Positions 1,010 to 6,136 are shown, numbered from the stretch's first letter. The stretch: 32,000 nt of DNA from Ktedonobacterales bacterium (GCA_030167145.1 CP126532.1:3090001-3122000), one strand, 5' to 3'. Numbers and translations are program-made. The notes: generated by a model from the sequence alone, not told the origin.

Positions 1010-1099
1010 TTTTCGCCGTTTTCGCCGCAATTTTGAGCTGTGGCAGTTGCCGGAGTTGCTGGTTCTTTGAGTTTGCATTCTCTTTGCCGTTTTCGCCGC
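1010..1099 (-). repeat. reverse-orientation copies of short motifs that recur right of the island: GCGGCGAAAACGGCGAAAA (1010-1028, 19/19), CGGCAACTGCCA (1041-1052), GCGGCGAAAACGGC (1086-1099)
   Basis: Direct reverse-complement comparison with 5093-5111, 5305-5323 and 5138-5149. Confidence 0.8.
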
Positions 1100-1431
1100 A
1101 GCCTCGGCTGTATTGCGGATCTACAAAAATAGGACGGACATAGCGCGAGCGAGCGGTTCATACCGCGCCTGAATGGCGTGTCGCCGCGAAACCCGCCTGC
1201 GCGGGTTGGGAAGAGAGTGGTGTCCGCACCAATGAGTAAAAGTGCATCGTGGCCGAGCGCGCGTCTACCGGTTTCATGCCATATGCCTCCCCTGGTAGCC
1301 ATCCCTTTGCCTGGTCTGCTACACTAATCGCGCGCAGGCCTTTATGGATCGTGGTATCAAGTAGAATCACGTTCGCTTTCTAGCTCATCGCAGTCACCAG
1401 CAAGATAGATACACTCGAAAGGAGAAGCTGA

Positions 1432-2364
1432 ATGACTGACATCAAGCTCTTCCGCATTGGACAAAATCAAGTCTGCGAACTCGCAGGCCAATCGGTTGCC
1501 ATTGAGAAAACGCTTCAGGAGATTATGGAGCGCCATCTTGATGCACTGCTAGGCGTCCGCTTTCTCGCCTCCGAGTATAGCACTGGCAAAGTGCATGGGG
1601 GGCGTATAGATACCCTTGGTATTGACGAAAATGGCAGCCCTGTTATAGTTGAATACAAGCGTGCATCGAACCAGAACGTGATCAATCAAGGCCTATTCTA
1701 TCTCGACTGGCTTTTGGATCACCACAAAGACTTCGAAATGTTAGTGTTGAAGCGCTTCGGACCTACAGCCGAAGAAGGCGTTGATTGGCGCTATCCGCGC
1801 CTGCTCTGTATCGCGGGCGATTTCACCAAATACGATGAGAAGGCAGTCCAGCAGATTCCGCGAAATATCGAGTTGATCCGCTACAAACGCTATGGCAATG
1901 ACCTTCTTCTGCTCGATCTGGTGAATTCCATCACCGAGCAGCCTCTCGAAGAACGCAATGTCCAGAACGGCGCCCTTAAATCGAAGCACCTCTCTAGCGA
2001 GCGCCCAAGCCGAACTGTCTCTGATCTCCTCGTTGCGGCTAGTATCGACCAGCAGGACCGTTACGAGGCGATCAAAGCGTTTCTACTAGCCCTCGGTGAC
2101 GATGTCCAGGTAAAAACCCTCGCCTACTACTTCGCGTTTCGCCGGATCAAGAACTTCGCATGTGTCGAGATTCATCCTCAGGCGAAGACCATCCTCGTGT
2201 ACGTCAAAGGTGACCCAGATATGCTCACATTGGATCCTGGCTTCACGCGCGATGTCCGCAAGATTGGTCACTTCGGCACCGGCGACTTGGAAATCACTAT
2301 ACGCAGTGACGCCGACTTTGAGCGTGCCCAGCCATTGTTATTGCGGAGCTATGAACAAAGCTGA
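1432..2364 (+). CDS. PD-(D/E)xK nuclease of the NucS/DUF91 type with a DUF5655-like C-terminal domain
   Basis: 310-codon ORF with AAGGAG 7 nt upstream of the ATG. The N-terminal half carries GRIDTLGIDENGSPVIVEYK (D...E-x-K) followed by NQGLFYLDWL, the pattern of NucS/DUF91-like endonucleases. The C-terminal ~110 aa (YYFAFRRIKNFACVEIHPQAKTILVYVK...IGHFGTGDLEITIRS...AQPLLLRSY) matches my memory of the DUF5655 module. Lower GC than the flanks. Family assignment is from recognition, not a search. Confidence 0.85.
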   Translation: MTDIKLFRIGQNQVCELAGQSVAIEKTLQEIMERHLDALLGVRFLASEYSTGKVHGGRIDTLGIDENGSPVIVEYKRASNQNVINQGLFYLDWLLDHHKDFEMLVLKRFGPTAEEGVDWRYPRLLCIAGDFTKYDEKAVQQIPRNIELIRYKRYGNDLLLLDLVNSITEQPLEERNVQNGALKSKHLSSERPSRTVSDLLVAASIDQQDRYEAIKAFLLALGDDVQVKTLAYYFAFRRIKNFACVEIHPQAKTILVYVKGDPDMLTLDPGFTRDVRKIGHFGTGDLEITIRSDADFERAQPLLLRSYEQS

Positions 2365-2487
2365 ATCCATATACCACGTTCATCCATCACCGTAGAAATG
2401 ATGTCTACACTGCTCGCCAGCAGCTGTGGCAAGGCAGATGGATGCGCGGGTGGTGATAGAGAGTAAGAGAAGAGAAAGGTTGCTGGG

Positions 2488-3177
2488 ATGGACAGTGCGG
2501 CATGGGAGAGGCTTTGGCGGGAACTGGACAAAATTCGAACCTATGGTAGACAGCTTGACATTCAGACTGCGCTTGCGGCTGCACGCGAAGCCAATGTAGA
2601 CCTCAGCCTCGACGATCTGCATTTACTCATTCAAAAGATGCCACGGTTAGTTCACCAGTCACTTCCCATCTGCCCACCTGCCATCGCGCGATTTGTGTCC
2701 GATTATCTCAAAGGCGCAAAGGTAGATTCAATCCTGGACCCCCAAGCCGATAGCCTTCTACTCGCCTCATTGGCTGTCGCGACTACTGTTGCAGACGTGC
2801 GTGGATATATTCGTTCTCACGACGCGCTTGCGCTTGCCAATGCGCTTTATATCGGGCAGACGATTAGTTGGCACCATGCCAACTTTCTCCATACTTCAAT
2901 GCAGTCCTCAGAACAGTTTGATGTAGTTGCTTCTTGCCTGTCGTTTGGTATGAAGCCGATGAACGCTTCATTTTCGTCGCCAGAGGGAGAGGTGAATGTC
3001 CGCGACAATGAGGAGTATATCCTTCTACTGAAATCTTGTTTGCATCTCAAGCCACATGGCGTCGCATTCTTTGTAGTGTTTAATGGTTTCTTTTTTTGCT
3101 CGCGGTTCAAGCAGTGTATACAATGCCCTTCCACAATTCGGTTTGTATGTAGATGCTGCCATGAGCGTGCCCAATGA
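2488..3177 (+). CDS. 5' portion of a frameshifted gamma-class N6-adenine DNA methyltransferase-like gene (motifs I and IV degenerate)
   Basis: The layout follows N6_Mtase order. It has LPICPPAIARFVSDYL...SILDPQADSLLL (motif I position, DP kept, Gly loop lost), FDVVASCLSFG (NPPF position reads CLSF) and LLKSCLHLKPHGVAFFVVFNGFF (LKPGG-type motif). The frame-1 tail after the T7 run (CSRFKQCIQCPSTIRFVCRCCHERAQ*) looks non-native. Confidence 0.75.
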   Translation: MDSAAWERLWRELDKIRTYGRQLDIQTALAAAREANVDLSLDDLHLLIQKMPRLVHQSLPICPPAIARFVSDYLKGAKVDSILDPQADSLLLASLAVATTVADVRGYIRSHDALALANALYIGQTISWHHANFLHTSMQSSEQFDVVASCLSFGMKPMNASFSSPEGEVNVRDNEEYILLLKSCLHLKPHGVAFFVVFNGFFFCSRFKQCIQCPSTIRFVCRCCHERAQ

Positions 3178-4804
3178 TGTCTTTAGTCCCCTCATATCAG
3201 TTCCCACCACCCTCGTGGCGATACGGCATGGGACGGCGGAACGGATCTTTGTTGGTGAGCTATCCAACGACCATCAGCGGAATCAGGTGCTGCTTCAGAA
3301 CTTGAAGGCCCACAGACCTGGTGCTGAGCCAGCCCTTGGCATCAGCGTGAAGGCGTCCGAATATCGTGGGTACGAAGCACTTGTGGCAGGGTTTCGCGCG
3401 CGGGAACTGGCTCGTTCGCATGGTGTTCCGCCAATCAAGCTGAGCGAGATCACGCGCGAGATTAACTTCACGAACGCCACAGATTATCCACATTCTGACG
3501 AGAAGGATAATGTGGTGTACCTACCTCTACTCGGCTTCGGCAGCGCCGTGACCTCGCTCCCGCTGGAGACACAAAAACACTCATCCAGCTACGCGCAACT
3601 CGTTCTCGATCCCGAAAAGGCTGTTGCAGACTACATCGCCAAATATTTGAACACGCGGCTGGGCACGGAAACGCGACGCCAGATAGCAATGGGCACGACC
3701 AGGCCTCGCCTAGATAAGCAATTGATTGGCGAATTGCAGGTGTATATCCCTGATCACGATACCCAGCTTGCGACCGTAGAGACCGACACAAAAATTGAAA
3801 CCCTGGTCAATGAGCTTCGGGAAATGCAGGAACGTGCATGGGCACAACCTCGGCGGTTAACGGAGATCCAGAAAAACTTGATAGCTGTCAATCACGAGGA
3901 GAGATTCCAGGATTGGCTGGATACTTTGCCTTTTCCGCTGGCTTCTATTCTCTGGACATATCATACACTTGGCAACGATGCTCAGCGGCGCTATGAGCGT
4001 CTGCTCCACTTCTTCGAAGCTCTCGCCGAATTTCTAGCTGCAGTACTCGTTAGCGGCTTTCGCATGGATGCGGAGTTTTTTGAGGGCAGGAAGACCGTTC
4101 TGAAGACCGTCGTAACGCCACAAAGTTTCGAGAAAAGCGCATTTGGCACCTGGGTGCGCATCGCCGAGAATCTGGCAAGCGAGGGACGCGCTTTGCTGAA
4201 TGGAGAGCCTGAAATACAAGCTCGATGTCTACGCATGTTCAGAGTAGGCGAGAGCAATCGTGAAATGCTAACAATGCTTTTTGAGAGCAGGATAATCGGC
4301 AAGCTCCAGGAGGCAAACAAGATAAGAAATGTATGGATGGGCCATACCGGAATTGTTGGTTCTTCTAATGCTCGCGAACGCTTGGCTATTCTTGAACGTT
4401 TGCTAGCTGATGTTCGCACAGTGTTCGGCACGCGATGGCAAAGTTACAAACTGCTAAAAACAGGAACAGCGTCACTTCGAGAAGGAGTCTACAGACATCA
4501 GGTTGAAATGATTGTGGGTACCCGAACACCCTTCGAGCAGGCAGAGGTATTGACCGATGAGATGATGGAAGATAGTCAGCTTTATCTCCTCAGCGTGGGT
4601 GAGCGTAAACCGTTACGGCTATTTCCTCTGGTTAAGGTCATGCCTTCTCCAAAGACCGCCGCTAATGCCTGCTATTTCTACAATCGCATGGAAGGTACGA
4701 AAGGATTGCGTTTTGTCTCCTATCACTTTGAGCAGGATGCGGATATTACCGATGGCTTCCCCGATACAGCCGATGCGCTGCGACAACTCATGGCAGATGA
4801 TTGA
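3083..4804 (+). CDS. 3' portion of the same gene: end of the MTase fold, HsdS-like target-recognition/conserved region, helical HEPN-like domain, C-terminal beta-rich domain
   Basis: From the T7 run, frame 2 continues the MTase fold (ARGSSSVYNALPQFGLYVDAAMSVPNDVFSPLISVPTTLVAIRHG, i.e. R..L...vdaVi.LP..vF...v.t.ilv). An S-subunit-like block follows (VADYIAKYLNTRLG...GTTRPRLDKQLIGELQVYIPDHDTQLATVETDTKIETLVNELREMQ). Next come helices (LPFPLASILWTY...RRYERLLHFFEALAEFLAAVLVSGF) and IRNVWMGHTG (Rx5H). The frame stays open for 573 codons. Confidence 0.8.
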   Translation: MVSFFARGSSSVYNALPQFGLYVDAAMSVPNDVFSPLISVPTTLVAIRHGTAERIFVGELSNDHQRNQVLLQNLKAHRPGAEPALGISVKASEYRGYEALVAGFRARELARSHGVPPIKLSEITREINFTNATDYPHSDEKDNVVYLPLLGFGSAVTSLPLETQKHSSSYAQLVLDPEKAVADYIAKYLNTRLGTETRRQIAMGTTRPRLDKQLIGELQVYIPDHDTQLATVETDTKIETLVNELREMQERAWAQPRRLTEIQKNLIAVNHEERFQDWLDTLPFPLASILWTYHTLGNDAQRRYERLLHFFEALAEFLAAVLVSGFRMDAEFFEGRKTVLKTVVTPQSFEKSAFGTWVRIAENLASEGRALLNGEPEIQARCLRMFRVGESNREMLTMLFESRIIGKLQEANKIRNVWMGHTGIVGSSNARERLAILERLLADVRTVFGTRWQSYKLLKTGTASLREGVYRHQVEMIVGTRTPFEQAEVLTDEMMEDSQLYLLSVGERKPLRLFPLVKVMPSPKTAANACYFYNRMEGTKGLRFVSYHFEQDADITDGFPDTADALRQLMADD

Positions 4805-5089: not shown

Positions 5090-5092
5090 ATT

Positions 5093-5323
5093 GCGGCGAA
5101 AACGGCGAAAAATGCGAAATCAAAATATCGGCCACATCGGCAACTGCCATCATCGGCAACTGCGAACAGCGACCACATCAGTTGCTGCTCTTTGTACCGC
5201 TGGCGTCCCGCCAGCCTCTCTATCGGTGGGGCGGACATTCCTGTCTGCCAGCATGCGAAAATCGGCAGAATCGGCAACTCTAGCAACTGCTTCGATGCGA
5301 AATCGCGGCGAAAACGGCGAAAA
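5093..5323 (+). repeat. forward copies of GCGGCGAAAACGGCGAAAA (5093-5111 and 5305-5323), each itself a CGGCGAAAA 9-mer tandem
   Basis: Exact 19-nt identity between the two copies and with the reverse complement of 1010-1028. Confidence 0.85.
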
Positions 5324-5816
5324 TTATCCGGACAGTGCCCATCATCTCCGGTCACATCCCCTCAACATTGCGGCCAAATCGGCCAAATCGGCCACTCTGG
5401 CAATCGCGAAAATCGGCAGAATCGGCAACTGCCTATACGCGCACATCGGCCATTCCGGCCACTCCTCTTCATCGAGATTATCCGTGGCATTCATGCCGAG
5501 AGGCCGCTACATCACATCACTCACCCTCTGCGCAAAATCCAAAAATCGGCCAAATCGGCCACTGGCCATTACGTGCAAATCGGCCATTGCGGCCACTCTG
5601 GCAACTGCAAAAAATCGGCCAAATCGGCCACTCCGGCCACTCCGGCCACTGTTTCCCTCACCTCGCCACTGCCGCAAACGAGATTACCCGCGGCCTTCAG
5701 GCCGGGAGTCTCCTTTATTGCCAATCTTGCCCAGCGCGCCGAATCTCAAAAATCGGCAGAATCGGCAACTGTACCTGTACCGCCAGCGTCCCGCCCGCAA
5801 TTGCGGCCACATCGGC
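5127..5816 (+). repeat. array of 18 same-strand ATCGGC(A/C) cores, nested in 9-nt tandem units and in longer repeated units
   Basis: Hand-located cores start at 5127, 5136, 5152, 5261, 5270, 5378, 5387, 5412, 5421, 5445, 5545, 5554, 5579, 5614, 5623, 5752, 5761 and 5811. The 25-nt unit GCGAAAATCGGCAGAATCGGCAACT occurs at 5255-5279 and 5406-5430, with 22 nt of it at 5749-5770. The 21-nt unit AAATCGGCCAAATCGGCCACT occurs at 5376-5396, 5543-5563 and 5612-5632. ACTCCGGCC is tandemly repeated at 5630-5650. No credible ORF. Confidence 0.85.
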
Positions 5817-6136
5817 CACAGGGCATGCATGCCCTCGCCATTGTGCTCCGGCCATGTATGGCCGAGAGCGGGAATGCCGTGCTCCGGCCATTTATGGCCG
5901 AGGCCGCCCCTCCGACATCTCTGGAGCGCGGCGGTGTACAATACAATCGCTATGCATCCCGTCGAGGCGTCCGGTGGACGAGCGGAGCGAAGTCCCTCCG
6001 AGCCGTTCCGAGGAGGGCGCCCGCCACCTGCCGCGCAGGGCAACGCTGCCCATCGCGCTTCGTGTTCGCTTCGTGTTCGCGCACCGCGCCGCTGGCAGCG
6101 TCAGGCCAGGGCCGCGCGCAAAGGAGATCTCCACCT

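Follow-up and report, generated by a model that had tools for sequence, protein, structure and literature searches.

Does a block of low G+C content in the genome of a Ktedonobacterales bacterium hold a dedicated two-gene defence system, or two defence genes that merely lie side by side? The block occupies positions 1432-4804 of the 32,000-nucleotide stretch analysed here (GCA_030167145.1, CP126532.1:3090001-3122000; hereafter the window). An initial annotation had read its two genes as a cassette derived from restriction-modification (R-M), with gene 1 encoding a NucS-like nuclease and gene 2 encoding a fusion of a dead methyltransferase, an HsdS-like specificity region and a HEPN-like domain. 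We conclude that the block is probably a horizontally acquired islet that carries two defence genes, each an independent accessory "guest" of Type I R-M systems, minus hsdM, hsdS and hsdR. Gene 1 is an intact, self-sufficient candidate nuclease of the PDC-S18 type. Gene 2 is a member of a large unnamed family in which a degenerate HsdM-like domain and half of an HsdS are fused to a putative effector module of 300 residues. By analogy with PrrC and Ronin, the role of this family is most likely that of a back-up effector of Type I R-M.

Domain content of the two genes

Gene 1 (1432-2364, + strand) is intact and encodes a protein of 310 residues, a NucS-like PD-(D/E)xK nuclease with a C-terminal DUF5655 domain. 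Pfam matches to NucS_C (6e-6) and DUF5655 (3e-11), together with the catalytic-type residues D60 and E74-x-K76, which are invariant among relatives, confirmed the nuclease and the DUF5655 tail that had been recognized initially. The PADLOC profile PDLC04946 (PDC-S18) matched gene 1 with E = 8.6e-145, residues 1-309 corresponding to profile positions 18-322 of 365. By this match gene 1 is a full-length member of PDC-S18, already catalogued in PADLOC as a single-gene candidate (DUF5655 domain-containing protein) whose model does not include gene 2. Gene 1 has many relatives: over 466 metagenome sequences matched it at 56-71% identity. Only three phage-labelled records were matched, all unannotated. 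We found nothing relevant in the literature on PDC-S18 and DUF5655.

Gene 2 (2488-4804, +) is frameshifted. It consists of two open reading frames, at 2488-3177 and 3083-4804, which overlap at a run of seven T residues (T7; 3091-3097, +); a run of six would restore the frame, and deletion of one T yields a protein of 771 residues. A database search with the repaired protein returned 27 homologues, most of them 750-790 residues long, with which it aligns end to end, and the repair is therefore correct. The NCBI annotation has only a C-terminal piece of 547 residues, named as a hypothetical protein (P0001). An AlphaFold2 (AF2) model of the repaired protein, built on 26 sequences, had a mean predicted local distance difference test score (pLDDT) of 86. 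The order of parts is an HsdM-like domain, a target recognition domain (TRD), coiled-coil helices, a helical domain and a beta domain.

The first of these parts (2671-3388, +; about residues 62-300) has the Rossmann fold of HsdM and the gamma class of N6 methyltransferases. The Pfam family N6_Mtase matched residues 125-266 at 6e-6, above the gathering threshold, and the PADLOC model mad2 matched at 2e-8. Foldseek aligned the N-terminal half of gene 2 with Type I HsdM and fused methyltransferase-TRD structures (7eew at 2e-12, 3lkd, 5ybb and CamA), the HsdM matches falling between 1e-9 and 1e-12. Both diagnostic motifs are degenerate in this copy: motif I reads DPQAD-S, with a one-residue deletion and without the G-x-G of DPxxGxG, and motif IV reads SCLSF where (N/D)PP(F/Y/W) is expected. 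We surveyed these motifs in 94 aligned sequences (the repaired window protein, 68 genome-locus matches and 25 database matches, some of them near-duplicates). The full [ND]PP[FYW] motif is present in only 3 of the 94, as NPPF or NPPW (L007, L026 and L073), and [ND]PPx in 6 more; the N or D is missing at motif IV in 85. Motif I, the DPxxGxG loop for S-adenosylmethionine (SAM), is kept in 62. As motifs I and IV are both gone here and motif IV is lost in most members, the initial description of a dead methyltransferase applies to this copy and, as a rule, to the family.

These data bear directly on whether gene 2 could be an ordinary active methyltransferase, either a Type IIG enzyme or a Type I fusion of M and S subunits. 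The N6_Mtase match above threshold and the three sequences with NPPF or NPPW speak for such an activity, as does existing annotation: plasmid-borne homologues are labelled "N-6 DNA methylase" in RefSeq, and one metagenome member is labelled "class I SAM-dependent methyltransferase" at NCBI. The motif losses just described count against it, and so do the separate, canonical HsdM encoded in the same operons (see below) and the roughly 300 conserved C-terminal residues, which are unrelated to any methyltransferase. We regard an active enzyme as exceedingly improbable.

The HsdM-like domain is followed by an HsdS-like TRD and two long helices of the "conserved-region" kind (3401-3892, +; about residues 305-468). 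Many models of Type I specificity subunits match residues 361-466 (PADLOC Specificity_I at 4e-5 to 1e-2; the NCBIfam MAD5 S subunit at 3e-4). In the AF2 model, long helices at residues 423-452 and 454-468 come after the TRD, like the conserved regions of HsdS, and Foldseek aligned the 7eew and CamA fusions of methyltransferase and TRD with gene 2 over more than 520 columns.

The remainder of the protein comprises an all-alpha domain (3896-4444, +; about residues 470-652), which is the HEPN-like candidate RNase effector and contains the invariant elements LPFPLA, FFE, FGxW and R-N-x4-H, and a beta-rich C-terminal domain (4445-4804, +; residues 653-771), assigned by DSSP on the models, with conserved CYFYNR and VSYHF. 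When the C-terminal 304 residues were modelled alone, nine helices followed by the beta domain were obtained with a pLDDT of 91.7 and a predicted template modelling score of 0.91. In Foldseek searches the beta domain weakly resembled small beta-barrels (ribosomal L2, ModE Mop; E > 0.03), and the module of about 300 residues has no counterpart among the models of Pfam, NCBIfam and PADLOC. Pfam, PADLOC, Foldseek and AF2 with DSSP thus recovered all four parts that had been proposed for a protein of about 770 residues: N6_Mtase, Specificity_I, the helical domain with IRNVWMGH, and the beta-rich C terminus.

The candidate active site of the helical domain is the Rx5H motif R613-N614-V-W-M-G-H619 (4325-4345, +). 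Neither R613 nor H619 varies, and N614 is conserved in 90% or more of the sequences; between R and H there are mostly five residues, with a range of about four to six in the 94-sequence alignment. In the AF2 model (pLDDT 86-92), R613 and N614 close a helix formed by residues 600-617, H619 lies in a loop, and a helix at 625-646 comes next. HEPN domains are defined by an Rx4-6H motif with a polar residue (N, D or H) after the R, set in a four-helix up-down core with inserts, and metal-independent RNase activity is a further mark of the superfamily (PMC3710099). The gene 2 motif has both the spacing and the polar residue of this definition, and its modelled position, at the end of a helix and then in a loop, also agrees with it (PMC3710099). 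Four of ten divergent members gave weak PADLOC matches (CARF_HEPN, Csx1/Csm6, CARF_HEPN_CSX20 and AbiD; E 0.005-0.07) that fell exactly over the motif.

A full HMMER scan with a profile of the C-terminal module retrieved 1,734 clusters (50% identity) at E <= 1e-3 and 852 at E <= 1e-30, and the architecture of about 770 residues is predominant among these matches. Four loci from Actinobacteria encode the module behind a different scaffold: one or two Ser/Thr kinase domains (Pkinase, 1e-28 to 5e-54) stand where HsdM-TRD would be. These fusions (L076 8316-10091, L077 168-2063, L078 8339-10990 and L080 9197-10978) retain the series LPFPLA ... RRNxWxGHGG ... CYFY ... VSYH. The exchange of scaffold suggests that the putative effector module is portable and worth defining. 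A phage origin for the module was also considered and was set aside, no phage match having been found.

Genomic context of the two families

We collected gene 2 loci by scanning one genome per species, which gave 80 loci from many bacterial phyla and from methanogenic archaea. When the neighbours of gene 2 were clustered, three recurrent families emerged, which Pfam identified as HsdR, HsdS and HsdM. At least one of hsdM, hsdS and hsdR lies within 6 kb of gene 2 in 48 of the 80 loci, and all three do so in 25; the usual order is hsdM-hsdS-gene 2-hsdR on a single strand, as in the intact operons of Salinibacillus kushneri and Rossellomorea pakistanensis (L027, L033). The HsdM of these operons is a separate protein with an intact NPPF motif. 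Placed between hsdS and hsdR, in the slot that PrrC occupies, gene 2 is thus to be seen as a guest of canonical Type I systems, and the analogy with PrrC that had been drawn for the window is upheld. GmrSD-type genes fill the same slot in gene 2 loci.

Individual loci vary around this arrangement. On plasmid pJH63-1 of Gordonia sp. JH63 (L162 7366-9885), hsdM-hsdS-hsdR is followed by gene 2 in the form of two coding sequences of 482 and 351 residues. The split falls at the boundary between scaffold and effector, both coding sequences are annotated "N-6 DNA methylase", and a SIR2 family gene is nearby. Of the relatives that we found on long contigs, P0006 is the closest to the window gene 2 (45% identity). 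The P0006 gene is intact and surrounded by pieces of hsdM and hsdR (L164 4534-13361, CAWEFN010000002.1); it has apparently survived the loss of the Type I operon that hosted it, and its setting shows a possible origin of orphan gene 2 copies. Downstream of another homologue, P0009, are genes for NurA, a DUF87 (HerA-like) protein and an SRA-domain protein (L167 10540-14807), which give that locus the look of a defence island.

Gene 1 has a related distribution. Type I genes are near gene 1 in about 25 of 80 gene 1 loci, and a Cupriavidus plasmid has a lone gene 1 homologue between hsdS and hsdR; in Staphylococcus the plasmid-borne homologue is solo. The DUF5655 domain is found in the same setting on other proteins: GmrSD-type (DUF262/DUF1524) nucleases with a C-terminal DUF5655 lie between hsdS and hsdR beside gene 2 homologues (L017 12298-14421, L048, L060 and L067). 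DUF5655 therefore recurs across different nucleases that are embedded in Type I operons. An R-M-derived, defence-related origin, as first proposed, is borne out for both genes.

The pairing of the two genes fared differently. A gene 1 homologue adjoins gene 2 in only 3 of the 80 gene 2 loci (L001, L012 and L010, the last in reversed order), and a true gene 2 lies beside gene 1 in only 1 of the 80 gene 1 loci, on the same contig as L001. The gene 2 proteins of the linked loci belong to different subclades, with 29-35% mutual identity, and for each there are closer relatives without gene 1. Among the closest relatives of the window gene 2 (P0002, P0003, P0006 and P0009), none has gene 1 alongside. 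The two genes share a niche and are not obligate partners, and the claim of a conserved two-gene cassette has to be given up. Of the two, gene 1 was already catalogued under PDC-S18, and the family of gene 2 is uncharacterised.

A dedicated defence system, in which the dead methyltransferase-TRD part of gene 2 would act as a sensor that recruits or controls the PD-(D/E)xK nuclease of gene 1, is nevertheless what the window itself might seem to show. The two genes are tightly adjacent there, on the same strand with a gap of 123 bp; they have travelled together into a place without Type I genes; and their adjacency recurs in three unrelated genomes, those of an archaeon (L001, a metagenome-assembled genome), a member of the Planctomycetaceae (L010) and a member of the Pseudomonadota (L012). 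This is outweighed by the absence of gene 1 from 77 of 80 gene 2 loci and of gene 2 from 79 of 80 gene 1 loci, by the reversed order in L010 and the scatter of the linked copies over subclades, and by the occurrence of gene 1 alone on plasmids and in Type I operons, in keeping with its single-gene PADLOC model. We consider a dedicated pair very unlikely, and two independent guest genes remain the preferred reading of the block.

The window copy and its surroundings

Neither the 32-kb window nor the 8 kb upstream of it contains hsdM, hsdS or hsdR, and tblastn searches with more than 100 HsdR, HsdS and HsdM sequences detected no Type I remnant in the window. Since Type I genes are absent from both, the gene 2 of the window is an orphan. 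The initial statement that the locus is not a canonical R-M system is accordingly true of the window; elsewhere, gene 2 is the guest of canonical Type I systems with an active HsdM. The frame break is present again in an independent Logan assembly of SRR22113990 (contig L081). Frameshifted and without a Type I partner, the window gene 2 is most likely an inactive, decaying remnant, and the adjacent copy of gene 1 looks intact.

The frameshift could also be a homopolymer error of sequencing or assembly, or a reversible slip, in which case gene 2 would be intact and functional. The break lies exactly inside the T7 run, no other stop codon interrupts either half, both are well conserved (51% identity to P0002 over the full length), and the size of the source contig, 5.07 Mb, suggests a long-read assembly. 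Recurrence of the same break in the independent Logan assembly argues for a real frameshift, as do the missing Type I partner and the split copies of the family found elsewhere (L053, L070, L071, L074, L079 and Gordonia pJH63-1), and we think an error or slip doubtful. Programmed frameshifting or phase variation at the T7 run is unsupported, the run not being conserved in homologues. We retain the view that this copy is a remnant.

The composition of the block fits the description first given of it. Its G+C content is 51.3% versus 62.7% for the rest of the window; it is the lowest-GC 3.4-kb stretch of the window, about three standard deviations under the mean; and G+C at third codon positions is 0.50-0.60 in the block versus 0.85 in the neighbouring aldehyde dehydrogenase gene. 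The block is flanked by inverted repeats. On the left (1003-1100, -) are two TGCGGCGAAAACGGCGAAAA-like units in inverted orientation relative to the right flank, an exact copy of the 20-mer at 1010-1029 (-) and a copy with two mismatches at 1081-1100 (-). The right flank (5090-5830, +) has TGCGGCGAAAACGGCGAAAA copies at 5092-5111 (+) and 5304-5323 (+), and 3' of these an array of about 700 bp of degenerate AAATCGGCC / AATCGGCAG units with a periodicity of 9 bp. Within the 32-kb window, copies of TGCGGCGAAAACGGCGAAAA are confined to these two flanks, where chance would be expected to produce none. These repeats could mark where a mobile insertion ends or, alternatively, a site of integration rich in repeats. 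Flanking arms of 64 nt, 78% complementary, also bracket the low-GC islet.

The 8 kb upstream of the window carry housekeeping genes (rpmF, fabD, acpP, nusB and dnaB). The DnaB gene of this genome, about 5-7 kb before the start of the window (L081 827-3451), contains an intein with a LAGLIDADG homing endonuclease identified by Pfam.

Proposed role and comparison with known systems

How might gene 2 act in those operons that retain a Type I system? In make-up, a dead HsdM with one TRD and a coiled coil is similar to half of an M2S1 complex. Such a scaffold might dimerise on DNA, dock to HsdR, or offer a surface that DNA-mimic anti-restriction proteins attack, and it would thereby tie the gene 2 protein either to the Type I machinery or its DNA, or to the DNA-mimic proteins that target HsdM-HsdS. 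From the R-N/H site we infer that the HEPN-like C-terminal domain could be a latent RNase. It would fire when Type I restriction is subverted, as a second line of defence by abortive infection after the manner of PrrC in EcoprrI and RonA in Ronin.

Taken to its full extent, this mechanism would make gene 2 a widespread class of Type I-coupled suicide effectors, represented in bacteria and archaea by at least 1,700 clusters (50% identity). In it, a decoy or sensor made of dead HsdM and half-HsdS, responding to anti-restriction DNA mimics or to the state of the Type I complex, would gate a new and divergent HEPN-type RNase, and actinobacterial Ser/Thr kinases would have captured the same module as a bacterial analogue of kinase-KEN proteins. 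We offer this fuller version tentatively, as possible rather than probable.

Several observations weigh against such a role, beyond the chance, discussed above, that the frameshift is an artefact. Of the 80 gene 2 loci, 32, some of them on short contigs, lack a Type I gene within 6 kb; coupling to Type I systems is therefore frequent, not universal. Searching the PDB and BFVD by Foldseek with the C-terminal model (pLDDT about 92) yielded no match at E <= 1e-3. When 23 members were scanned against Pfam, neither a HEPN-clan match nor any recurrent family came up. Two profile searches of PDB sequences, one based on the C-terminal alignment and the other on 52 aligned sequences of the motif region, retrieved no HEPN, only coiled-coil noise such as TRIM5 and RF2. 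The initial HEPN assignment is thus favoured by the Rx5H motif, its position in the model and the weak Csm6 and AbiD matches, and confirmed by no fold or profile search; we regard it as plausible, with the balance tilting slightly towards HEPN. Finally, two thirds of the family retain motif I, and a regulatory or recognition role without a toxic effector would also fit the sequences.

The main rival account builds on this last point. The gene 2 family would be a non-methylating, HsdM/HsdS-like recognition subunit that retargets or regulates HsdR, for example towards modified DNA or independently of methylation, and its C-terminal module would serve in regulation or interaction, not as a toxin. 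Gene 2 is usually directly upstream of hsdR, it retains the TRD and the coiled-coil helices, and motif I persists in 62 of the 94 sequences despite the loss of motif IV, SAM being a cofactor for Type I restriction. Such a subunit is harder to reconcile with the kinase fusions, which carry the module with no HsdR nearby, with the loci that lack a Type I gene, and with the invariant R, N and H and an acidic residue of an upstream helix, which look catalytic. On these grounds we judge a non-toxic subunit unlikely, and a back-up effector of Type I R-M remains the role that we favour.

The window itself is of modest significance, with one known candidate gene and one broken orphan: gene 1 does not differ from the rest of PDC-S18, and gene 2 lies outside that family. 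We found no description of the gene 2 architecture in the literature on HEPN domains, HsdM, decoys and BREX diversity, and the family is a genuinely uncharacterised variant of Type I-linked accessory defence. Its first 460 residues share the Rossmann methyltransferase fold, the TRD and the spacer helices of HsdM and of M-TRD enzymes (7eew, 3lkd, 5ybb and CamA). The window copy departs from them in having lost the catalytic motif IV, as most members have, and motif I too, and in its 300 additional C-terminal residues. If the proposed role is correct, an annotation correction follows, as many hundreds of sequence clusters are probably mislabelled as methylases.

In the 2013 survey of HEPN domains, those associated with R-M were fused to nucleases, helicases and ATPases, "but not to the methylases" (PMC3710099); gene 2, if its helical domain is HEPN, would be the first fusion of the HEPN-methylase type. 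The order of kinase and module in the actinobacterial fusions echoes that of the kinase-HEPN(KEN) proteins Ire1 and RNase L (PMC3710099). This likeness is one of architecture, no sequence or fold match to KEN being detectable for the C-terminal module.

The closest functional parallels are PrrC and Ronin. The anticodon nuclease PrrC of the EcoprrI Type Ic system, with which RloC is grouped here, is an accessory protein with a C-terminal Rx4-6H HEPN site, encoded between hsdS and hsdR, that acts as a back-up when restriction is blocked (PMC3710099). Homologues of gene 2 have the same slot and a C-terminal Rx4-6H motif. The regulatory part of PrrC, however, is an ABC-type NTPase, whereas that of gene 2 is a dead HsdM-TRD; the two show no sequence match, and the RNase activity of gene 2 is a predicted one. 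Ronin, which frequently occurs in the absence of hsdR, has an HsdMS decoy that works independently of methylation; the decoy is proposed to detect anti-restriction proteins and then to release the toxin RonA (bioRxiv 10.1101/2023.04.06.535777). Gene 2 resembles it as a Type I-derived module in which methyltransferase activity is not needed. Ronin uses a separate, catalytically intact HsdM and HsdS with a membrane toxin of 61 residues; in contrast, gene 2 fuses M and half of S, has a degenerate motif IV and carries a soluble module of 300 residues, and any sensing of Ocr or ArdA by it would be conjectural. If the reading of gene 2 is right, its family would represent a third "guard" design for Type I restriction, beside the NTPase-gated HEPN of PrrC and the HsdMS decoy with a membrane toxin of Ronin, and one in which decoy and effector lie on a single polypeptide.

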